From: an uncultured Hyphomicrobiaceae bacterium
GTDB lineage: Bacteria > Pseudomonadota > Alphaproteobacteria > Rhizobiales > CAMYJA01
NCBI GenBank assembly: GCA_947258705.1
Contig: CAMYJA010000007.1
Coordinates: forward strand, 211,695-275,694
Length of the DNA: 64,000 bases
Direction: 5' to 3'
Position 1 is the first letter of the stretch; every line of letters starts with the position of its first letter. This document shows positions 20,806 through 61,443 of the stretch, piece after piece. Position numbers and translations under genes: made by a program. The notes under the pieces are model-generated. The model was not told the DNA's origin and did no database searches. It was given only the letters and a program-made list of their open reading frames with translations.

Positions 20806-20978
20806 AAATGGCGGGTGCATTGGGGACAGCATTGGTGGAGGGCAGCATCGATTAAGGGCCGTTAACCGCCGGGTGCCATCTCAGTCCTTTGCGCGAATGG
20901 CCTCCGGTTCCGCTCAAGATGCAAAACCAGCCGATTGAGGTTTTACGTTGCAAGGGCTGTTCGTCACACTAAGCAGAA
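20806..20978. repeat. ~170-bp direct repeat, copy 1 (ends in a degenerate double-palindrome site)
   Basis: Aligns by eye with 24173-24351 with scattered substitutions; CCTTTGCGCGAATGGCCTCCGGTTCCGCTCA is identical in both. Confidence 0.95.
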
Positions 20979-24172: not shown

Positions 24173-24351
24173 AAATGGTGGGTGCATTGGGGGGCATTGG
24201 GGGCATTGGGGGAGGGCAGCACGATTAAGGGCCATTTACCGCCGGGTGCCGTCTCAGCCCTTTGCGCGAATGGCCTCCGGTTCCGCTCATGATGCAAAAC
24301 CAGCCGATTGAGGTTTTGCGCTGCAAGGGCTGTTCATGACCCAAGGCGGAC
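24173..24351. repeat. ~175-bp direct repeat, copy 2, ending in TGACCCAAGGCGGAC
   Basis: Direct repeat of 20806-20978; its last 15 bp are identical to 45065-45079. Confidence 0.95.
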
Positions 24352-25195: not shown

Positions 25196-25206
25196 GCTTT
25201 AAAAGC

Positions 25207-25273
25207 GTCTCTTATTGGCCCATCGCGTCGATGTCACAAATCGGGGTCAGGGCAGCTTTTGCCAACAGCGGAC
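25207..25273. repeat. Right-boundary palindrome-family site
   Basis: Shares TTGGCCCA...AGCTTTTG...AACAGCGGA with 50560-50619. Confidence 0.7.
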
Positions 25274-25554
25274 GTAGACAGCTTGTAGCGGTGCACTTCG
25301 CTAATTTCCGCTCCTGTATAACTTCCGCCGAACGTCTCGTCGCCGGCAACCGTGATGCCATCTTCCCCTCCGGATCGACTGTCACCGTCTCCTCTGTCTC
25401 GCGACCTGCCGTTTTCCTGTGCGAAAGCTGCCGCCGGTTTACTTGTAAGCCCGGAACGAAAAATGCCGCGAACTCCGTTCCGAAGCCGCGGCATTAGCCG
25501 TTTCATGAACTGTCTCATGCGGTCGGCCGGGGCCGGATGCGCATGATTTGCGTA

Positions 25555-36386: not shown

Positions 36387-37307
36387 ATGGAAAAACTCCT
36401 CGATTTGAACGTTTTAAAAGCGGAAGCGGTCAATCTGTACGATATCGGTATTGAATACGGGCTGACGATCGGGACGGCGCTCCTCCTTCTCATTGCGGGT
36501 TTTTGGGCCGCCAAATTCGTGTCCCATGCCGTGCGCTACCGGCTCGAGAATATCAGGGACATGGACCCGACCCTGATCCCCATGATGGCTCAGATCACGC
36601 GTTACGCCATTCTTACCTTCACCCTGATCCTGGTGCTCGCGGAGTTCGGCGTGCAGACCGCCAGCATTATCACGGTCATTGGCGCGGCGGGTCTTGCCAT
36701 CGGTCTGGCGTTGCAGGGCACGCTGCAAAATGTCGCCGCCGGCATAATGCTTCTGGTCGTCCGTCCGATCCGTGTCGGCGATTATGTCGAGGTCGCCGGA
36801 GCCGGCGGCACGGTTATGGAGATCGGTCTCTTCATGACGCGGATGAAGACGCCGCAAGGTCTTTACATCTCGGTTCCCAATTCGAAGATTTTTTCCGACA
36901 CCATTGTCAATTACTCGATGAACGCTCAGCGCCGGATCGACCTTGTCGTCGGCATCTCATATGAAGACGATATCGACAAGGCCGTCGGGGTGCTCACCGG
37001 CCTCGTTCAGGCGGACGAGCGCATACTCGAAAGCCCGGAGCCCAAGGTCATCGTGACCGCGCTCGGGGAAAGCTCGGTCGATCTCGAGATCAGGGCATGG
37101 ACGGACCGCCCACAATATGCGGACACGCGGTTCGATCTTATGCGGTCGGTGAAATATGCGCTGGATGAAAAGGGCATATCGATACCCTATCCGCACCGGC
37201 AGATCATTTTGTCCGGCGGCGGTGCGCAGATCGAGCAGGTGATCGGCTGCGATGTCGAGGACGGGATGCCGGACGACATCTATCACAGCCATACGCTCCT
37301 GCGCTGA
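36387..37307 (+). CDS. Small-conductance mechanosensitive channel (MscS)
   Basis: GAAGLAIGLALQGTL.N, RPIRVGD and IPYP motifs. Confidence 0.93.
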   Translation: MEKLLDLNVLKAEAVNLYDIGIEYGLTIGTALLLLIAGFWAAKFVSHAVRYRLENIRDMDPTLIPMMAQITRYAILTFTLILVLAEFGVQTASIITVIGAAGLAIGLALQGTLQNVAAGIMLLVVRPIRVGDYVEVAGAGGTVMEIGLFMTRMKTPQGLYISVPNSKIFSDTIVNYSMNAQRRIDLVVGISYEDDIDKAVGVLTGLVQADERILESPEPKVIVTALGESSVDLEIRAWTDRPQYADTRFDLMRSVKYALDEKGISIPYPHRQIILSGGGAQIEQVIGCDVEDGMPDDIYHSHTLLR

Positions 37308-44759: not shown

Positions 44760-44975
44760 ATGCACAGCAGCAATGACAATGATGAGGGAAAGCTTCGTAA
44801 ACTCCTCGAGGAGTTGCGCGGCGAGCACCGCGCGATCGATGCCCAGATCGCATCGCTCGAAGCCGAGGCGTCCGTCGATCATCTCGAGCTCAACCTGATG
44901 AAGCGCAAGAAGCTTTTTCTCAAGGACGAAATTATCGCTCTCGAAAACAAACTGCTGCCCGACATCATCGCCTGA
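44760..44975 (+). CDS. DUF465 / YdcH family protein
   Basis: LRGEHRAID and MKRKKLFLKDEI...LLPDIIA motifs. Confidence 0.9.
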   Translation: MHSSNDNDEGKLRKLLEELRGEHRAIDAQIASLEAEASVDHLELNLMKRKKLFLKDEIIALENKLLPDIIA

Positions 44976-44982
44976 AGCCCTG

Positions 44983-45014
44983 GGCTTAGGGCCTAAGGCC
45001 TAAGGCCTACGGCC
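44983..45014. repeat. Degenerate heptamer tandem (GGCCTAA-like x4)
   Basis: GGCTTAG GGCCTAA GGCCTAA GGCCTAC GGCC. Confidence 0.75.
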
Positions 45015-45064
45015 CGAGATCGCGGATCTGCGGCCTGCGGGTGTGCAGAGCTGCTGAGCTGGTC

Positions 45065-45079
45065 TGACCCAAGGCGGAC
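45065..45079. repeat. Left-boundary site TGACCCAAGGCGGAC
   Basis: Identical to 24337-24351. Confidence 0.85.
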
Positions 45080-45140
45080 GCAGACTCCAATTCGTCAGAT
45101 TAACGAGCTGAAGGTTTAGATCCGATGTGTCTGGCACAGG

Positions 45141-46172
45141 CTATTTTCCAGCCGTCCAGTCGATCAGCATCTGCCAGAGCCGGCCAAATTGTTCGCGCGC
45201 CCGCTCGCGGTGCGTTTCATAGCGGACATGTTTGGTAAGTCCTGCGTCCGACGCGAGTTCGATTGAAAACAACGCATTGATTTCATTCGGAACGAAGGAA
45301 TAGCGAACATCGACTATGCGATTGGGATTAACGGGATCGACCGCAGAGAAACCATCGCTGAAATGGTCGAACCGATCGATATCCCTTGCCTGTTGCGAAT
45401 TTGGTTTCAGCCAGGGGAAATCCCGGGCAGGATTTAGTTTTGATACGGATGTACCTTTATAGACTTTGGGACCGATGCCGGCCCGAACGGCATCAATAAA
45501 GAACTTGTCTTCTGTTTCATAGACGCTCCTCCAGACAAGAATATTGCCAAAGCTGGGCTTTATTTCAAAACGCAGCGGCGCATGCCCGCGCGATGCCGCC
45601 AAATTGGCCGCGATTTCACGCGCACCCTGATGCTGAAACCACCCCGCACCCAGATAGACAAGCGCCCAAACCAGGCCGATGCGGGCCAGGCGGGGCTCGT
45701 TGCGCACCGCCGCCAGGGCAACGGACAGCACCAGCGGCAAGGTGAAAAGCGGATCGACGATGGAAATAATGCTCCAGGAATAGCGCGTCTCGATGAGCGG
45801 CCAGAACAGCATCGTGCCGAACGATGTCGCCGCGTCCAGCAGCGCATGTGTGGCGTAGCCCAATGAACACAAAAGCACTGTCTGCCAAAAACTTAATTGC
45901 CATCGCCGCCCCAAAATCCAGTGCACGAACAGCGCTACGATCAAGCCGCCAAACGGAATGAAAAAAAGAGAATGCGTAAATTGTCGATGATAGGTGAGGA
46001 ACAGCAGCGGATCGGTATCCGAGTAGATCAGTATGTCCAGATCCGCAGCCATGCCGCCGATCATTCCCAGAAAGCCGGCGAGGGCAGCATGAGAATTGCG
46101 GAGCCCGGACCGTTTGGCCCATGTCGATTGCGGCAATGCGGCGCCCAACGCGCCCTGCGTTATAGGATCCAT
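45141..46172 (-). CDS. Membrane-bound metal-dependent hydrolase (YdjM-like)
   Basis: MDPITQGALGA, ADLD, HRQFTHS, THALLDAAT and IVDP motifs. Confidence 0.88.
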   Translation of the reverse strand: MDPITQGALGAALPQSTWAKRSGLRNSHAALAGFLGMIGGMAADLDILIYSDTDPLLFLTYHRQFTHSLFFIPFGGLIVALFVHWILGRRWQLSFWQTVLLCSLGYATHALLDAATSFGTMLFWPLIETRYSWSIISIVDPLFTLPLVLSVALAAVRNEPRLARIGLVWALVYLGAGWFQHQGAREIAANLAASRGHAPLRFEIKPSFGNILVWRSVYETEDKFFIDAVRAGIGPKVYKGTSVSKLNPARDFPWLKPNSQQARDIDRFDHFSDGFSAVDPVNPNRIVDVRYSFVPNEINALFSIELASDAGLTKHVRYETHRERAREQFGRLWQMLIDWTAGK

Positions 46173-46423
46173 ATTATTCCAGGGATGAAAAATACCGCCC
46201 CATGCGAGCGTTCGCAACCAGGCGGTTATAACACCAATACTGAGAGTCGTTTACACCCCGTCAAACCGGGTGGCGGCAATATTAGAGGTAAAAACGCGAA
46301 AAGCAATTGTCGCCGCAGCCTCCGTCCTTCGCGCGAAGGACATCCAGATGCCGGTTGCCCAGGCAACCACCCGATTGTACGGCGGGTGTCATCCGTGCAG
46401 CGCGGATTGCGTCTATATGAAAT

Positions 46424-46462
46424 CCTCATGGTGAGGCGGACCTTAGTCCGTCTCGAACCATG
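46424..46462. repeat. REP-like palindrome CCTCATGGTGAGG...GTCTCGAACCATG
   Basis: Resembles Rhizobiales intergenic palindromic repeats; internal hairpin GGCGGAC-CTTA-GTCCGTC. Confidence 0.6.
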
Positions 46463-46619
46463 GGCAGCCGATTCGCTCCATGTCAGGCGCGGTTTGCGCG
46501 AACCAATATTGCGCGTTGCGCCAACCGGACAAATGCGGAGGGTTAGCGGTGTTAGTTTGTGTGCAGGAGGGGGCATTGGGCGACCGACAAACAAGGAGTT
46601 TGATCGACGCTGCCCAAGC

Positions 46620-46688
46620 GTCCGCTTATGAAGGAGCTGCGGTAGTACGAACGGTTACGTGAATGACGGTGGATAACCCGGAGCGGAA
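46620..46688. repeat. Internal double-palindrome site
   Basis: GTCCGC-N13-GCGGTA, 20-nt spacer, GACGGT-GGA-TAACCC-GGA-GCGGAA; same geometry as 24281-24351. Confidence 0.6.
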
Positions 46689-46760
46689 ATGGCGACCATA
46701 TTTTTGATTTATGGTAATGGTGCCAGCTATATTTTTGATTAAGTGGGTGCCAGCCTGCGT

Positions 46761-47747
46761 CTACCGATAATGCTTATAGAGCCACCAGGCAAAAACTCCG
46801 CCGAGCAATACGAGCATGAGAGAAACGATCCAGAAAGCATAGGGATGTTCGGCACCGGGAATGCCGCCAACATTGATACCAAGCAGGCCGGCTAGAAAGC
46901 TCAAAGGAAGAAAGACCGCCGCCGCAATCGACAGAACCAGCATCGTGCTGTTCATTTTCTCCGCAAGACGATTAGTCAGCGCTTCCTGAATGACAGTGAG
47001 TCGTTCCCGTGCCTCGGCGAGATCTTCGACATAGCGGGTCAGGCGTTGTGCGCTTTCCCTCAATTGTGCGCGACTTAACTCATCGAGCCAAGGCGCTTTC
47101 GCAACCGCCAACTGGGTGAGGACGTCGCGTTGCGGCACCAAATGTCGCTTGAGCGGAATGATTTGGAGCCGCAAATCGCGTACCTGCTTACGCAGTTCGC
47201 CAATATCAGAATGGTTGCGATCGCTTTGATCGTCGAGATCGTCGATATCATCGTTTAGCTTTTGAAGCACGTTACCGATTTTATTGATAAGACCGTCGAC
47301 AAGCACCGTCACAAAACCACCTAGGCTTTCGGGACAGTCGCCTGAATCTATATCCTGCCTGATTTCATGCAGACTTTGCACACGCCGCCTTTGCAGGGTA
47401 ATTATTCTGTTCCGTTCGATAAAAGCACGAACCGTAACGAGATCTTCGGGATCTTCGTGAGGGTTCATGTTGATGCCGCGCAGGAGAAGGAGGATACCTT
47501 TGGTGCCTACGTGAATTCGTGGTTGCGGATTGATCAACGTGAGCGCCTCGACAGTGTGCTCCGCCATGCTCGCATCCGAGATCAGCCAGCGTGCAGTTGC
47601 GGGATTATCCATATCAAAATGCATCCAATGCCAGACATCGTCTTCCGGTGATTCATGAAACACGTCCTTGTCATTTAATTTGAGCGGACTCTGTCCTGCG
47701 CCAAGTTCATAGCCGAAAAGCAATCCTATCTTATTCAGTTCGGTCAT
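46761..47747 (-). CDS. zntB: Zinc transporter ZntB / CorA family
   Basis: LLLLRGINMN, PQRD and FLPLSFLAGLLGINVGGIPG (GIN signature); ATGA overlap with the upstream gene. Confidence 0.88.
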   Translation of the reverse strand: MTELNKIGLLFGYELGAGQSPLKLNDKDVFHESPEDDVWHWMHFDMDNPATARWLISDASMAEHTVEALTLINPQPRIHVGTKGILLLLRGINMNPHEDPEDLVTVRAFIERNRIITLQRRRVQSLHEIRQDIDSGDCPESLGGFVTVLVDGLINKIGNVLQKLNDDIDDLDDQSDRNHSDIGELRKQVRDLRLQIIPLKRHLVPQRDVLTQLAVAKAPWLDELSRAQLRESAQRLTRYVEDLAEARERLTVIQEALTNRLAEKMNSTMLVLSIAAAVFLPLSFLAGLLGINVGGIPGAEHPYAFWIVSLMLVLLGGVFAWWLYKHYR

Positions 47748-50257
47748 GAGTCTTCCAGTTTTGTTTCTGCACGCGTCATGGTTTCGGCATGCGAGCCCTT
47801 GATATGGATGTCTCGTTGCGGAAACGGAATTTCGATATTGTTGCGCTTCAATGCATCCCATATCTCGAACCTCAATTCGTTCATGATGCGAACGCGATTT
47901 ATGACATCGGGAAGAAACACCCGAAGCTCCAGGTCGAGGGAACTTTCACCATAATCCTTGAAATAGACGACGCTCTCAGGATAGGGCAGCACCTCGGGAT
48001 GATTCTTGGCAACCTCAAGCAGCACATCGCGCACCTTGCCGAGATCAGATTTGTAGGAGACGCCAATATTGATATCTAGGCGGCATGTGCGATCCCGGTG
48101 CATCCAGTTTTTTACTGTGCCGCTGATCAGTACTGAATTCGGAATAATGACAGCCTCCTTATTGACGGTTTCGATTTCCGTGGCGCGCACGTTGATCCGC
48201 CGGACATAGCCTTCATTCCCATCAACCATGATCCAGTCTCCGACTTTGATCGGTCGCTCCAAAAGAAGGATGAGCCCAGAGACAAAGTTATTAAAAATGC
48301 TTTGCAGTCCAAAACCAATGCCGACAGACAATGCACCGGCAATAATGGCAATTTTCGTAAAATCGATCCCGAGATAACTGGCGGCAAGGAGAAGGGACAA
48401 TACGAAGCCGGTATAACCGATGATTGTGTATACAGAGGTGCGTAACCCTGTGTCTGTACGCCCCACATAACTAAGCCTGTTTGAGATCCACCGCTGAACA
48501 ATTCTCGTTATCAAAACACCTCCGGCAAAGAAGCCGATGGCGACCAGCACTGTTTTTAGCGATAGCGTGAACCCGCCAAACTGAACGCCCCAAAAAGCCT
48601 GCACGATCCATGTACGGACTTCAGTCCAGTCAAAACCCCATTGCAGTAGCAGAAATGGAATTGCAAAGAGGAGGAGGAGTATGTCGAGGGACAGCCCCGT
48701 CAACACACGCAAGGTGCCTAAGGTAGCGGCGTGCCCGCCTTGGTCAGCATCGCCGACGAAATTTGAGGGAGCGCCTTCCTGGCCCGCAAAAAGGCGTTTC
48801 GTTGAATAATAGTCGATGACCAGATGCAGCATATAGGTGGCGTAAAGAATGCCTCCCGTTGCAACCACCTGGGATCCGGTAAAGCGAGCCAATGCGATAT
48901 AGCCAGAAAAGGCAGATACAAACAATGTGGCGACGAGCGCGAGTCCCACAACATAGAGTATACCTCGCCAGCCATCAAAAACCATTATCCTTTTGGCATC
49001 ACCCATACGCCGCAACGTCACCAGAACAGCCACGAGGCAAAAACCATAGAGCATGGCGAATATAAATGTTGTAATCACTGAGAAGGAATAGGTGGCCTGA
49101 AGGCCCTTGATCATGTTTCCAGTCAACTCGTCAACAAACCACAAAACCACCAGGGCGATGACAAGAAATTTCAGGAGCTGGTATTCGGTGTTATCCTGCC
49201 CGGACATGCGCTCAAAATATGCGATGTTAGCGTGGACAAGAAATCCGAGAAAACCCGCAGCCAGCGCGGCCAAGGTGACATTGATAAAATGCCGTTCACT
49301 TCCGGGCGCCGGTATATCGGCCCAGGCAGCGACTGCAAAAAATGTACCGATGATCGCAGCAAAGGGGATAAAATAATGCAGCGACGTACGCATAATCACC
49401 GCGCCCTGCCCCGAAAACCGGGATGTCTGTTCACCCGCAGGTTGAAAAGGTTCAATCTTCCGGAACCGGTAAATCAGAAAACCGGCAAAAAGGATTGGCA
49501 ACAGAACCAGCGCCAAAATGACTTGCCAACTACTGCTCTTGAGCCTGGTCGTCACAGTGACGAAACCCTGTTCGACTTTTTCGAAAAATCGAGCCCGTGA
49601 CCAAAAAGCCAGACTCCACAAATCCGGCCCAAAAAGATTAGGTACACGTGTCAGTAATCGTGTCGAAAATCTTTCCCGGCGTTTGACGTTTGACGCGGAA
49701 ACAATCTGAGCAATGCGAATAAGATAAACATCCGACCGCTTTATCAGCCCATCAATGGCTCCCAGTTGCTCCTTCAGTTTGCGCCATTCACCAGCAACGC
49801 CTCCGGTTTCAACTGGTTCGACATCCTTTGGCTCAGGTCCGAGTTTCTTTAGCTGTTGCTCCAAATCCTCGCGTTTTGACTTGAGGCTGGTGATGAATTT
49901 GGCAATCTCGTCCTTGATTTTCGCGAGAACCTCTGGCAGCTCCCGCAATTCATCATCGGAGCTGGAAACGGCCTGCAAAACCATGTCCGCATCGTCGATC
50001 TTGGTCTCCCATACAGCCATTTTTGGCGCATGTTGTTCGAGAATTCGCGAGGCCACGCCCCCCTCAATGAGTTGTGTAATCCATTCAGGCTGGGCAACCC
50101 GTTGCCTGAGAGGTGTTTCAACTGTAATCGCATCCGCACCGCCACTCGACTCCTGAGCGGCGGCCCCACAGGGCACCAGCATTGCGTAGACAAGCACTAA
50201 CGGGACTAGGGCAGTGAATGTGAGCACTCTTGGTCGTTGCGATTGGCAGATATGCAT
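47744..50257 (-). CDS. Large mechanosensitive channel (MscK-like) with periplasmic coiled-coil
   Basis: GALSVGIGFGLQ..FNNFVSGLILLLERPIKVGD and IPFPQRD motifs; signal peptide and many TMs. Confidence 0.92.
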   Translation of the reverse strand: MHICQSQRPRVLTFTALVPLVLVYAMLVPCGAAAQESSGGADAITVETPLRQRVAQPEWITQLIEGGVASRILEQHAPKMAVWETKIDDADMVLQAVSSSDDELRELPEVLAKIKDEIAKFITSLKSKREDLEQQLKKLGPEPKDVEPVETGGVAGEWRKLKEQLGAIDGLIKRSDVYLIRIAQIVSASNVKRRERFSTRLLTRVPNLFGPDLWSLAFWSRARFFEKVEQGFVTVTTRLKSSSWQVILALVLLPILFAGFLIYRFRKIEPFQPAGEQTSRFSGQGAVIMRTSLHYFIPFAAIIGTFFAVAAWADIPAPGSERHFINVTLAALAAGFLGFLVHANIAYFERMSGQDNTEYQLLKFLVIALVVLWFVDELTGNMIKGLQATYSFSVITTFIFAMLYGFCLVAVLVTLRRMGDAKRIMVFDGWRGILYVVGLALVATLFVSAFSGYIALARFTGSQVVATGGILYATYMLHLVIDYYSTKRLFAGQEGAPSNFVGDADQGGHAATLGTLRVLTGLSLDILLLLFAIPFLLLQWGFDWTEVRTWIVQAFWGVQFGGFTLSLKTVLVAIGFFAGGVLITRIVQRWISNRLSYVGRTDTGLRTSVYTIIGYTGFVLSLLLAASYLGIDFTKIAIIAGALSVGIGFGLQSIFNNFVSGLILLLERPIKVGDWIMVDGNEGYVRRINVRATEIETVNKEAVIIPNSVLISGTVKNWMHRDRTCRLDINIGVSYKSDLGKVRDVLLEVAKNHPEVLPYPESVVYFKDYGESSLDLELRVFLPDVINRVRIMNELRFEIWDALKRNNIEIPFPQRDIHIKGSHAETMTRAETKLEDS

Positions 50258-50559
50258 AATGATTTGGCTTTCCTCGATACCCGCTCAGATTATCTGTGCC
50301 GGCGGATACTGCTACCACTAAAAGAAAATATGCCACCAGTTTTTGATAGTTGAAGTCTGGTACAAGCTTTGGCGTTTTCTCAATTATGGATATGGATCAA
50401 TTCTGAGATGTCAACGAGGCTTGATAATTTGAGGGCATGAAACCTTGGCCGACCGTTATCAACAGACACTTCCGTAACCGGTCTAACCCTGACATCAAAT
50501 GGCGCCGGAAACAAACACACCAGATTTGTCTGTATTTAAGACTCATTTGCACAACAAAT

Positions 50560-50619
50560 GTCCGCTCTTGGCCCAACTCTGCCAATCGGCCAATGAAAGC
50601 TTTTGGGGGAACAGCGGAA
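50560..50619. repeat. Right-boundary palindrome-family site
   Basis: GTCCGC-TCT-TGGCCC-AAC-TCTGCC, then GAAAGC-N13-GCGGAA; similar to 25207-25273. Confidence 0.75.
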
Positions 50620-50774
50620 TCTCGTCCCGACGGACAGTTCCGATTGCTTCAATGCATCATCTAAGTCCGCTCCCTCTGCAATGCCCTCACCTCCACACCT
50701 CCCCCACCGCCCGCACCTCCCAAACGCCCGCAAGTAAAATCCCGAGGCTTCCCTGCAAAACCCTGCCCCGGCTC

Positions 50775-50802
50775 TTGCCAAGCCCGCCCGCGTGCCTATA
50801 AT
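50775..50802 (+). promoter_or_regulatory. Sigma70-type promoter for purEK (TTGCCA-N16-TATAAT)
   Basis: Near-consensus -35 and perfect -10. Confidence 0.6.
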
Positions 50803-50869
50803 CGCGCGCTTTCCCCGGCCCAGGCCGACCTGGGCCGGCCTAGGCCGGCTTCGGGAGAGTGCTGCGAAA

Positions 50870-51349
50870 ATAGGCATTATCATGGGCAGCCAGTCCGACT
50901 GGCCGACCATGGAACGTGCCGCCGACATCCTCACCGAGCTTGAAATACCCTTCGAGGTCCGCATTGTCTCGGCGCACCGGACGCCGGACCGGCTATACGC
51001 CTATGCCCGGGGGGCCGAAGAACGGGGCCTGCAAATCATTATCGCGGGCGCGGGCGGTGCGGCGCATCTCCCCGGCATGACAGCTTCGCTGACCACCCTG
51101 CCCGTTTTCGGCGTTCCCATCGAAAGCCGCGCTCTTTCGGGCAAGGATAGTCTCCTGTCGATCGTTCAAATGCCCAGGGGGATTCCCGTCGGCACGCTCG
51201 CCATCGGCGATGCGGGCGCGTCGAACGCCGCACTTCTGGCGGCGCAGGTCCTGGCGCTTCATGACGCGGCGCTGGCCGGCCGGCTCAAGGCCTGGCGTCA
51301 GGCACAGACCGATGCGGTCGTGGAAACGCCCGAAAGTCAGGGTTCGTAG
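50870..51349 (+). CDS. purE: N5-CAIR mutase PurE (start codon uncertain)
   Basis: [25 protein letters not shown] and SIVQMP.GIPV motifs. Confidence 0.96.
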
Positions 51350-51352
51350 CCG

Positions 51353-52456
51353 ATGGCCGACCTGCCGCTGAAACCTGGAAGCACCATCGGGATTTTTGGC
51401 GGCGGCCAGCTCGGCCGCATGCTGGCCATGGCGGCTGCGGAACTCGGCTTTGCGACGCATATCTATTGCGATCATGACGGCTCTCCGGCCTCGCAGGTCG
51501 CGACCCGCACAAGCGTCGCCGCCTATGACGACATGGCCGCGCTCGAGCGGTTCGCGGGCTCGATCGACGTCGCCAGTTTCGAATTCGAAAACATCCCGAC
51601 GGAAGCGCTCGAATTCATATCGGCCCATACCCGCCTCGCGCCCGGCGCCAATACGCTCGACACCACAAGGGACCGCCTGGTGGAGAAGGAATTCGTCGCC
51701 GGTCTCGGGATTCCGGTGGCGCCTTTTGTCAATATCGGCGAAGAACTCGACCTCGACCTCGATGAAATTGGGGATAAGATCCGCTTTCCCGCACTGATGA
51801 AATCGCGGCGTTTCGGCTATGACGGCAAGGGCCAGGTCCGGGTCGTGTCGCCCGGCGAGATCCATGCGGCATGGGAGAGCCTCGACCGGGCCGCCTCGAT
51901 ACTCGAGGAGATCATTCCCTTTGAGCGCGAGTTCTCGACCGTGGCCGTCCGCGACGATGGCGGGGAAATGCTGTTTTACGATCTCACGGAGAACGATCAT
52001 GAGGGCGGCATATTGCGCCGCGCCCAGGTGCCGGCCGCGGCCCCTCCCGAAATACATGAAAAGGCCCGGGACATTGCCGGGATCATTGCCGCGCGGCTCG
52101 ACTATGTCGGAACCTTTGCGGTCGAATATTTTTATTGCGGCCCCGATTTCGAGCATCCGCTCATCGTCAACGAGATCGCCCCCCGGGTTCACAATACCGG
52201 CCACTGGACGATGGACGCGGCCCTGACGAGCCAGTTCGAAAATCATATCCGCGCCATTGCCGGCTGGCCGCTCGCCTCGACGATCAGGATCGCGGATGCG
52301 GTGATGACCAATCTCATCGGCGACGATCTCCTCAACTGGCCCCGGCTCGCGAAATCGCCCGAAAACGTCCTGCATATTTACGGCAAGGACGAAATCCGCG
52401 CCGGGCGTAAAATGGCGCATGTCACGCGGCTTTCGCCCAGAACGGGCTGGAACTGA
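51353..52456 (+). CDS. purK: N5-CAIR synthetase PurK
   Basis: GGGQLGRM, GYDGKGQ, NEIAPRVHNTGH and YGK...GRKMAH motifs. Confidence 0.97.
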   Translation: MADLPLKPGSTIGIFGGGQLGRMLAMAAAELGFATHIYCDHDGSPASQVATRTSVAAYDDMAALERFAGSIDVASFEFENIPTEALEFISAHTRLAPGANTLDTTRDRLVEKEFVAGLGIPVAPFVNIGEELDLDLDEIGDKIRFPALMKSRRFGYDGKGQVRVVSPGEIHAAWESLDRAASILEEIIPFEREFSTVAVRDDGGEMLFYDLTENDHEGGILRRAQVPAAAPPEIHEKARDIAGIIAARLDYVGTFAVEYFYCGPDFEHPLIVNEIAPRVHNTGHWTMDAALTSQFENHIRAIAGWPLASTIRIADAVMTNLIGDDLLNWPRLAKSPENVLHIYGKDEIRAGRKMAHVTRLSPRTGWN

Positions 52457-60377: not shown

Positions 60378-60810
60378 AGTGTCGACGTTTTCGTAAGGAT
60401 CTATTGTGCTCTTGAAGGAGACGGTGTTCCTATTTAGCGATCAAGAGACAGATTAGGGTATTCTACGAAGTGTAACCTTGACTCATTCAATCCCTGAGGA
60501 TCAAACGGCCATTGTAAAGCCCCTTTGTTATGGGCCATTTCTTGAAAGAGTTTCAGGTGCCGGAGGACGCATGTTAAGCGCCTGATGCGGACGGATGTGA
60601 TTGTACTGTCTGAGCGGAATGGCAGCCGATCTCAAAATTTAGACGTCAAGCGCTGATCGCGCAGAATTTCACCTTTGCCTGTTTCGCAGACTAATGCGTG
60701 GATCGCGTCTCTTCCTGTCATTCAATACACTTCACATGATGCACCTGAAGCCGACAAGGACGTTTGTTTTTAGAGATGATGGTCACTCACTCAACATGAG
60801 GAGTAGACCT

Positions 60811-61443
60811 ATGAAGTATTTTGAAAAACTTATCTCTAAGACGAACAGACGCGATCCCTGGAACAAAGGTAAGCTCATCGGCCCCAAGCCACCGCTTCGG
60901 CCAAAACATGTCTGGGCGGTTCGAACCAAACTTCAGATGGAACGCCGAACAAGGGACCTGGCCCTGTTCAATCTCGCGATCGACAGCAAACTCCGCGGCT
61001 GCGATGTTGTGCGGGTTCGTGTCGAGGACATTGCGCCTCGGGGATACGCGGTCGATCGTGCCATCGTTCGGCAGAGCAAGACCGGCCGACCGGTCAAGTT
61101 CGAGCTAACCGAGCAAACACGGGAGTCGCTGGACGACCACCTTCGAGAAGTGAGCCGTGAATGCGGGCAGTATCTCTTTCCGGGACGTGGAAAGGGCACG
61201 CACCTGACAACTCGTCAATATGCACGCTTGCTTGGCGACTGGCTCGCGAGCATAGGTCTTGATCCGTCGCTGTACGGCACGCATTCCCTGCGCCGTACAA
61301 AGGCTACGCTGATTTATAAGCGCACTGGGAACCTGCGCGCCGTCCAGCTTTTGCTGGGCCACTCGAAAATTGAGAGCACAGTTCGATATATAGGTATTGA
61401 GGTAGACGATGCTCTCGAAATCGCGGAACAGGTCGACATCTGA
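60811..61443 (+). CDS. Compact tyrosine recombinase/integrase (210 aa)
   Basis: Catalytic R (DSKLRGCD), K (QSKT), HxxR (HSLRRT), H (LLGH) and Y (TVRY); GAGGAG RBS. Confidence 0.95.
   Translation: MKYFEKLISKTNRRDPWNKGKLIGPKPPLRPKHVWAVRTKLQMERRTRDLALFNLAIDSKLRGCDVVRVRVEDIAPRGYAVDRAIVRQSKTGRPVKFELTEQTRESLDDHLREVSRECGQYLFPGRGKGTHLTTRQYARLLGDWLASIGLDPSLYGTHSLRRTKATLIYKRTGNLRAVQLLLGHSKIESTVRYIGIEVDDALEIAEQVDI

Follow-up and report, generated by a model that had tools for sequence, protein, structure and literature searches.

A three-gene islet, probably lineage-specific, in the DUF465-purE spacer of an uncultured Hyphomicrobiaceae bacterium, and the chance-level hairpin formed by its joined ends

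In the genome of an uncultured Hyphomicrobiaceae bacterium (G000, a 66-contig assembly of 2.77 Mb), a block at positions 45065..50619/50620 of the stretch analyzed here, all 64,000 nucleotides (nt) of which are referred to as the window, separates a DUF465 gene from purE. An initial annotation of this DNA had proposed that the block was an insertion, and that its ends join into a hairpin of the kind expected at the junction of an excised circle. In our judgment the block is probably a fixed, lineage-specific islet that carries three ion-homeostasis genes in a variable spacer, and the hairpin a by-product of bringing together two palindrome halves, because the halves of two palindromic copies give a hairpin automatically when they are joined. 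The block comprises three minus-strand membrane genes for ion and osmotic homeostasis with their own AT-rich upstream region and has no mobility gene; its ends would fall within or next to degenerate members of a palindromic, intergenic repeat family of low copy number. We infer that it probably arrived by recombination into a spacer prone to gene gain, and not as a self-excising cassette.

The comparison of synteny was made at the level of the order; G000 was the sole member of its own family and genus among the genomes searched, and every one of the 30 genomes used as relatives came from other families. DUF465 was present in 108 of 120 other genomes of the same order and purE in 116 of them. 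The initial annotation had stated that DUF465 commonly lies directly before purE in Rhizobiales, and this adjacency proved to be real: in 54 of the 105 other genomes of the order with both genes, the two were on one strand, DUF465 coming first and the gap being ≤500 bp, and the longest of these 54 directly adjacent spacers was 324 nt. In the remainder the gap was 501-1500 bp (26 genomes), 1.5-7 kb (8) or >7 kb (3), the gene order was reversed (1), or the two genes were on opposite strands (5) or on different contigs (8). An opposite-strand GGDEF gene was found in all four of the scanned 0.9-1.5 kb spacers with an open reading frame (ORF; genomes G060, G048, G016 and G040), and five larger spacers carried unrelated ordinary genes (a CoA-ligase/GNAT fusion, an IclR regulator plus an ABC transporter, a DNA ligase plus a phytase-like protein, a LysR gene and a GGDEF gene). 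None of the 23 ORFs scanned in enlarged spacers of other genomes was a recombinase or transposase, and the 10 enlarged DUF465-purE loci examined elsewhere had no homolog of YdjM, CorA or MscS, the families represented in the block. Because the enlarged spacers of other genomes hold different ordinary genes, gene gain has recurred in the DUF465-purE spacer across the order, and the cargo described here is unique to G000. A limited search of the literature found no description of DUF465-purE synteny.

The composition of the block was likewise atypical. Its G+C content (GC) of 0.517 was within the lowest 3.2% of 2466 genome windows of 5.5 kb, its tetranucleotide distance was in the top 4.3% of 517 windows, and GC shifted at ~45070-45090 and ~50560-50660, tens of bases or less from the proposed ends. 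On the right, the insertion is bounded by a strong promoter-like site of purE (TTGCCA-16-TATAAT, 50775-50802, 11 of 12 matches). With the 105-genome synteny, the absence of the cargo from 10 other enlarged spacers, the atypical composition and the GC shifts all in its favor, the proposal that the block is an insertion is upheld, and its entry into an ancestrally tight DUF465-purE junction is supported as far as the data reach. The block thus combines a break in conserved synteny with atypical composition, as genomic islets do, and resembles them further in its lower GC, its accessory transport and membrane cargo and its position in a spacer that varies by lineage. The features of the locus are as follows:

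44760..44975, plus strand: DUF465 gene (PF04325, E 1e-12), left neighbor of the insertion
44976..45049, no strand: GC-rich spacer after DUF465 (GC 0.64-0.68) with GGCCTAA-type repeats, probably native
45050..45079, plus strand: left-end patch GCTGC-TGAGCTGGTC-TGACCCAAGGCGGAC, which includes the left string at 45065-45079
45141..46217, minus strand: YdjM-family inner-membrane protein, putative metal-dependent hydrolase, 358 amino acids (aa) (PF04307, E 9.6e-30)
46218..46760, no strand: internal YdjM-CorA spacer of 543 nt, with an arm-like site GTCCGCTTATGA at 46620-46631 (5.0 bits on the repeat-unit model described below)
46761..47861, minus strand: CorA-family divalent-cation transporter, closest to ZntB (PF01544, E 1.5e-61)
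47744..50257, minus strand: large MscS-family (MscK-like) mechanosensitive channel, 837 aa (PF00924, PF21082)
50258..50557, no strand: AT-rich region upstream of the MscS gene (GC 0.34-0.54), by composition part of the block
50558..50620, plus strand: module B, an imperfect palindrome of 63 nt (arms, 50561-50575 and 50604-50618), which contains the right string and core
50621..50881, plus strand: GC/C-rich, native upstream region of purE (GC 0.64-0.78) with a GGCC-rich leader hairpin
50882..52456, plus strand: purE and purK, right neighbors (PF00731; PF02222, PF22660, PF17769)

The sequences on which the excised-circle proposal was built were located where it had placed them (GTCCGCTCT at 50560-50568, followed by TGGCCCAA at 50569-50576, and TGACCCAAGGCGGAC at 45065-45079), and joining the ends in silico reproduced the 6-bp plus 4-bp stem with one unpaired T. 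The join, assembled from coordinates and folded with RNA energy parameters, gave ((((((.((((...)))))))))) at -12.9 kcal/mol. Neither the core nor the fold stood out from the background, however. The core TGRCCCAA occurred 5 times in the window versus 4.65 expected, and the two intergenic regions that were compared (44976-45140, 165 nt, and 50258-50881, 624 nt) had 33 cores in common that matched at ≥7 of 8 positions. The proposed join was only third of the 33 by folding, behind two joins between the GGCC-rich stretches adjoining DUF465 and purE (-14.4 and -13.8 kcal/mol), for both of which the spacer at 44976..45049 is the left-hand source. A junction hairpin of -12.9 kcal/mol or lower was obtained from 24 of 300 (8.0%) random pairs of genomic segments of the same sizes and spacing, and of 1000 shuffles, 46% did as well as the best direct alignment between the two intergenic regions and 57% as well as the best inverted one. 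The junction hairpin is at chance level.

If the block were a site-specific cassette, its circular form would carry a 27-nt palindromic site (GTCCGC-loop-GCGGAC) and would have integrated by crossover within TGRCCCAA under the action of a recombinase supplied in trans, leaving an attL at 45065-79 and an attR at 50560-76, and an ArsR-AHSA1 operon elsewhere in the window would be a second cassette. The GC shifts near the proposed ends are in keeping with this, as are two genes for tyrosine recombinases 10-16 kb from the block: a short one at 60694-61443, which at 10 kb is the nearest (recombinase match at C7:272640-273086, C7 being the contig that carries the window), and a second past the window end at C7:277156-277632. 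Against it, hairpin and core are at chance level, no recombinase or transposase was found in or adjoining the block (45065-50620), and neither the circle junction nor the empty-site junction was present on any contig of the assembly. In addition, the empty spacer implied by excision, ~402 nt, exceeds all 54 directly adjacent spacers. The claim that the ends form an excised-circle junction is therefore not supported, its core not being enriched, its hairpin being at chance level, and the block having no recombinase, transposase or tRNA and no junction contig; we found no support for the ability of the block to excise itself, which we regard as very doubtful. The genome contained only 4 Phage_integrase matches. 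Both tyrosine recombinase genes are near the end of C7, beside small unannotated ORFs and a lower-GC stretch that starts at ~54.2 kb, and this region may be an integrated element.

The block was also compared with known classes of mobile element. Unlike a classical integrative island, it has no integrase, no tRNA was detected in the window by tRNA scanning (Rfam family scans were negative as well), and the only direct repeat is the 7/8-nt core, one of 33. The rest of the window is housekeeping in nature (purC/purL, rpsD, alaS, recA, pntAB and others). The joined ends recall an integron cassette in that they form an imperfect palindrome with an unpaired base and the right core, GCCCAAC, fits RYYYAAC. 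The attC sites of integrons are ~57-141 nt long and have RYYYAAC and GTTRRRY boxes, whereas the junction here is 24-27 nt and has no GTTRRRY box. The block also differs from a single promoterless ORF in a cassette array, in that it has three genes, a 543-nt spacer and its own 624-nt upstream region and sits among housekeeping neighbors with no array, and it has no integron integrase; the recombinase at 60694-61443 scored 26.7 bits on TIGR02249, for which the cutoff is 265.

The ends could alternatively be read as those of a non-autonomous transposon with TG-initiated imperfect inverted repeats (TGACCCAAG-GCGGAC on the left and the complement of GTCCGCTCTTGGCCCA on the right) that was moved by a transposase encoded elsewhere. 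By eye, the two ends read as inverted repeats agree at 13 of 15-16 positions, the near-palindromic core included, and the genome does contain IS3-family insertion sequence (IS) elements and solitary IS end fragments. However, as an inverted repeat (CCAAG-GCGGAC versus CCAAGAGCGGAC) the ends scored 17, which was reached by 86% of 400 random pairs and falls short of the average of the best scores from such pairs (18.9). There is no visible target-site duplication (GTC versus ACT), the IS3 ends of the genome (starting TGTTCCCCGTCAGCG) are unrelated to those of the block, a Y1/RAYT transposase was not found in the genome, and the block is single-copy. Transposition of this type is extremely improbable as the origin of the block.

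A different context for the right end is provided by module B, which folds on itself: TCCGCTCTTGGCCCA (50561-75) pairs with TGGGGGAACAGCGGA (50604-18), with a z score of -2.0 and a fold as good in 7 of 200 shuffles. Because of this fold, the right-end GTCCGC that would have to form half of the cassette site already has a partner 40 nt away, and the right arm is thus paired in place. A sister copy of module B (89% identity over 55 nt) occurs at C8:1611-1665, immediately next to an IS3-family element of 1512 nt (HTH_Tnp_1 and rve ORFs), the left inverted repeat of which it adjoins. The sister copy lies outside that element and module B is unrelated to its inverted repeats; the block itself has neither that IS nor a remnant of it. 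That the right end might be left over from the IS3 element itself was considered and rejected, the common 55-63 nt being outside the IS inverted repeat. As a gapped pattern, module B had no match in the genome contig collection (the contig collections searched here may omit records of G000 or very near genomes).

When the arm motif was used as a query, a low-copy family of palindromic units 27-28 nt long came to light. The arms of the units approximate GTCCG and CGGAC, their loops are of the TGGCAC, GGGGG or TGACCC type, and the units are often arranged as inverted doublets. The units are mainly on small contigs (C42, C52, C53, C55, C56 and C61), among them C52, where several copies lie between EamA, Sel1-repeat and patatin genes. 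With nhmmer, 8 copies were identified at E <0.01 on C42, C52, C53, C55 and C61, and 15 units from 11 loci were gathered in all. Family matches were found in 1 of 100 other genomes of the order. The arm motif GTCCGCT.TTGG was not itself enriched (77 versus 87 at one mismatch), a looser regular expression for the arm was uninformative (194 versus 169), and matches to ATGTCCGCTCTTGGC on C36 and C15 were dismissed as chance, both sitting in long ORFs. On C52 the palindromic doublets, ~80 nt in length, separate ordinary genes of ~1 kb, and doublets are present at the ends of many small contigs (C42, C53, C55, C56, C61 and C65); C52 and the doublet-ended contigs may belong to a single repeat-rich region left unjoined in the assembly.

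In order to compare the block ends with this family, a hidden Markov model (HMM) was built from 10 units, all from other contigs and none from the window, and scores were set against those of 4000 random 55-mers:

Natural right end, half 1: 3.7 bits, reached by 0.4% of random 55-mers
Natural right end, half 2: 6.0 bits, reached by 0.075%
ArsR-side copy: 5.4 bits, reached by 0.125%
Virtual circle junction: 4.9 bits, reached by 0.125% (5 of 4000)

Natural left ends and the virtual empty site were not detected with this model. A second HMM, from 15 units, gave eight matches of ≥5.0 bits in the window, two of which were 50560-76 on each strand, compared with one match in the reversed window. Five intergenic sites were among the eight: 50560-76, 24281-300, 25257-73, 24331-51 and 46620-31. 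These scores are suggestive of the window ends belonging to the repeat family, by a route that is partly circular. The family is similar to REP/REPIN sequences in that module B and the small-contig copies lie in intergenic DNA and consist of two ~27-nt palindromic units, inverted relative to each other and separated by a spacer. A REPIN is described in PMC3337134 as two inverted REP units and a spacer mobilized by a RAYT transposase. Viewed as two such inverted units, module B folds with a z score of -2.0 and has halves in the top 0.4% and 0.075% on the unit HMM, but its matches in the window have E ≥1 and the family was found from this very motif. Moreover, the family differs from REP/REPIN in its size, ~15 units versus hundreds, and in having no cognate Y1_Tnp/RAYT gene; PF01797 had no match in G000, with a control search positive in 6 of 14 genomes.

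The second locus to which the ends relate is the ArsR-AHSA1 operon, at which two features were found:

24320..24351, plus strand: counterpart of the left-end patch, 9 nt downstream from the stop codon of ArsR and located where copy 2 of a ~170-nt direct repeat ends
25202..25275, plus strand: palindrome that resembles module B but has diverged from it, upstream of the ArsR-AHSA1 operon and colinear with module B (5.4 and 6.1 bits on the unit HMM)

The left-end patch matches 24320-24351 at 27 of 32 aligned positions, a score reached by none of 500 shuffles, and the 15-mer at 45065-45079 within it occurs exactly twice in the 2.77-Mb genome, at these two sites. As a genome-wide repeat the left-end motif was rejected, in that 53 matches at ≤3 edits were obtained versus 49 in the reversed genome. 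The colinear alignment of module B with 25202-25275 had p values of 0.003 with loose and 0.03 with strict gap penalties. The remark in the initial annotation on an ArsR cassette, for which the same end join had been made, thus holds in part, as flank homology on both sides, but not as a junction. Among the results, this link to the ArsR operon stands alone in not being explained by chance. The shared ends are compatible with a cassette, with insertion of genes into sister repeat clusters and with decayed intergenic repeats of the same subfamily, each of which predicts a different empty site. For the cassette, boundary sequence is homologous on the left and on the right at both loci, both loci are minus-strand operons, and joining the ends of the block restores a unit with the length (27 nt) and register of the natural ones (4.9 bits, 5 of 4000 random 55-mers); conversely, the right end at ArsR matches poorly within the arm itself, and in view of this and the evidence presented above we consider a site-specific cassette to be very unlikely.

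The homologous flanks at the two loci could also have arisen if the repeats were the target of insertion rather than its vehicle, in which case a palindromic cluster would have pre-existed in the DUF465-purE spacer and the block would have landed between its units (~45080 and ~50557), and likewise beside ArsR, the repeats acting as hot spots for illegitimate or repeat-mediated recombination. Consistent with this, units cluster in twos or threes elsewhere (for example, at C52:156-247), doublets separate the EamA, Sel1-repeat and patatin genes of C52, and the abutment of the C8 copy of module B with an IS3-family insertion indicates that such sites do receive DNA. On the other hand, the left-end copy has no recognizable left arm, the ancestral spacer would have had to measure ~430 nt, which exceeds that of every directly adjacent relative, and with two loci only, statistics are impossible. 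This explanation is unlikely, in our estimation.

Two further repeats near these features were noted. The ~170-nt direct repeat (20809-20977 and 24178-24350; 129 nt at 90%, and further with gaps) brackets a 3.37-kb segment encoding a histidine kinase, an unannotated ORF of 116 aa, a LysR regulator and an AhpC/TSA-like protein. Its copies diverge exactly at GGGCTGTTC, and the arrangement looks like a Campbell-type or repeat-mediated insertion. The internal YdjM-CorA spacer was examined as a third copy and rejected, having no homology to the 170-nt repeat; it does have, directly downstream of the CorA stop, a tandem repeat of ~33 nt (ATATTTTTGATT ... GGTGCCAGC, twice, 46700-46760).

The cargo of the islet is of mixed origin, judging from the relatives of its three predicted proteins. 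The YdjM-family protein was 72.7% identical (75% at the nt level) to the product of a gene at an unrelated locus in G024, a genome of another family, and since core genes of G000 and G024 have 69-75% nt identity, YdjM is at the top of that range. No LexA-type GTTC-N7-GTTC box was found upstream of YdjM or anywhere else in the block, the 4 in the window (versus 1.9 expected) all being outside it. The CorA-like protein scored 221.6 bits against the ZntB model NF007092, under the cutoff of 292, and its best identity among 300 genomes of the class was 44%; no close relative of it was found in the genome contig collection. A search with DUF465 gave no relative in the metagenome contig collection. 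The true start of this gene is probably downstream of 47861, because the annotated ORF overlaps the MscS gene. The MscS-family channel matched the MscK model NF008438 at 228 bits across its C-terminal 230 aa, and full-length MscK-like homologs were present at other loci in 83 of 120 genomes of the order, with a best identity of 41%. A second, small MscS-family channel (306 aa) is encoded at 36387-37307, 9 kb upstream of the block, so that the window has at least two mechanosensitive channels.

Several of these observations weigh against an islet whose joined ends are simply repeat by-products, and should be considered together. The natural left ends escape the 10-unit HMM, all window matches of the 15-unit HMM have E ≥1 with none individually significant, and the right-end motif was itself the query that brought up the repeat family, which makes the match of that end partly circular. 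The virtual junction has the length of a natural unit (27 nt) and, at 4.9 bits, scores above the 3.7 bits of a natural right-end half. Homologous sequence is present at both ends of both the block and the ArsR-AHSA1 operon, each of them on the minus strand, and the independent decay of scattered repeats does not obviously predict such shared ends, which fit a common cassette-like frame. As for the cargo, foreign origin is only moderately supported, the GC of YdjM being normal (0.55) and its 75% nt identity being within the core-gene range, and the fact that MscK-like genes are common in the order weakens it further.

Additional observations were made on the flanks of the block and elsewhere in the genome. 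The GGCCTAA-type heptamer repeats follow the DUF465 stop at 44985-45020, and the purE leader, past the promoter-like site, has a GGCC-rich palindrome, GGCCCAGG-CCGA-CCTGGGCC, followed by GGCCTAGGCC (50820-50860), with no Rfam match. The IS3-family element of C8 (C8:1-1750; 1512 nt, OrfA HTH_Tnp_1 and OrfB rve) neighbors a truncated gene of the cNMP-binding (Crp-like) type. C8 begins with 99 nt that are identical to internal sequence at C7:122614-122712, which suggests a second or polymorphic insertion of the IS at C7:~122712. A ~100-nt segment is shared by C8:~1674-1760 and C25:16116-16209 (100% identity over 77 nt); the similarity fades where module B starts, giving a three-way mosaic with the window. 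Lastly, C35:24660-24800 and C37:10300-10461 (minus strand) share an upstream leader before two genes for predicted proteins with signal-peptide-like N-termini. It consists of TGACCCAACTCGGACAT, then ~37 nt on an 8-codon ORF starting MDQIA, then further conserved blocks, and it may be regulatory. The TGACCC...CGGACAT sequences on these two contigs had been candidates for IS ends and were rejected, as both precede the genes for the signal-peptide-like proteins.

These results show that chance alone can produce a tidy junction hairpin when two intergenic regions are joined, as it did in 8% of random pairs. They also indicate that G000 carries a small palindromic repeat family, for which a RAYT gene was not found, with putative degenerate copies that bracket at least two operons. 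We speculated that the 27-nt units might serve as recombination sites in a cassette system distinct from both integrons and IS, with operon-sized cassettes (the block, the ArsR-AHSA1 operon and possibly the C52 array), crossover in TGRCCCAA and a recombinase encoded elsewhere, in a lineage with no relative of its genus or family among the genomes searched. This is highly improbable; if it were true, the repeats would represent a new kind of cassette system, for which the present evidence gives no support. As it stands, the block represents the ordinary gain of accessory genes in a variable spacer.

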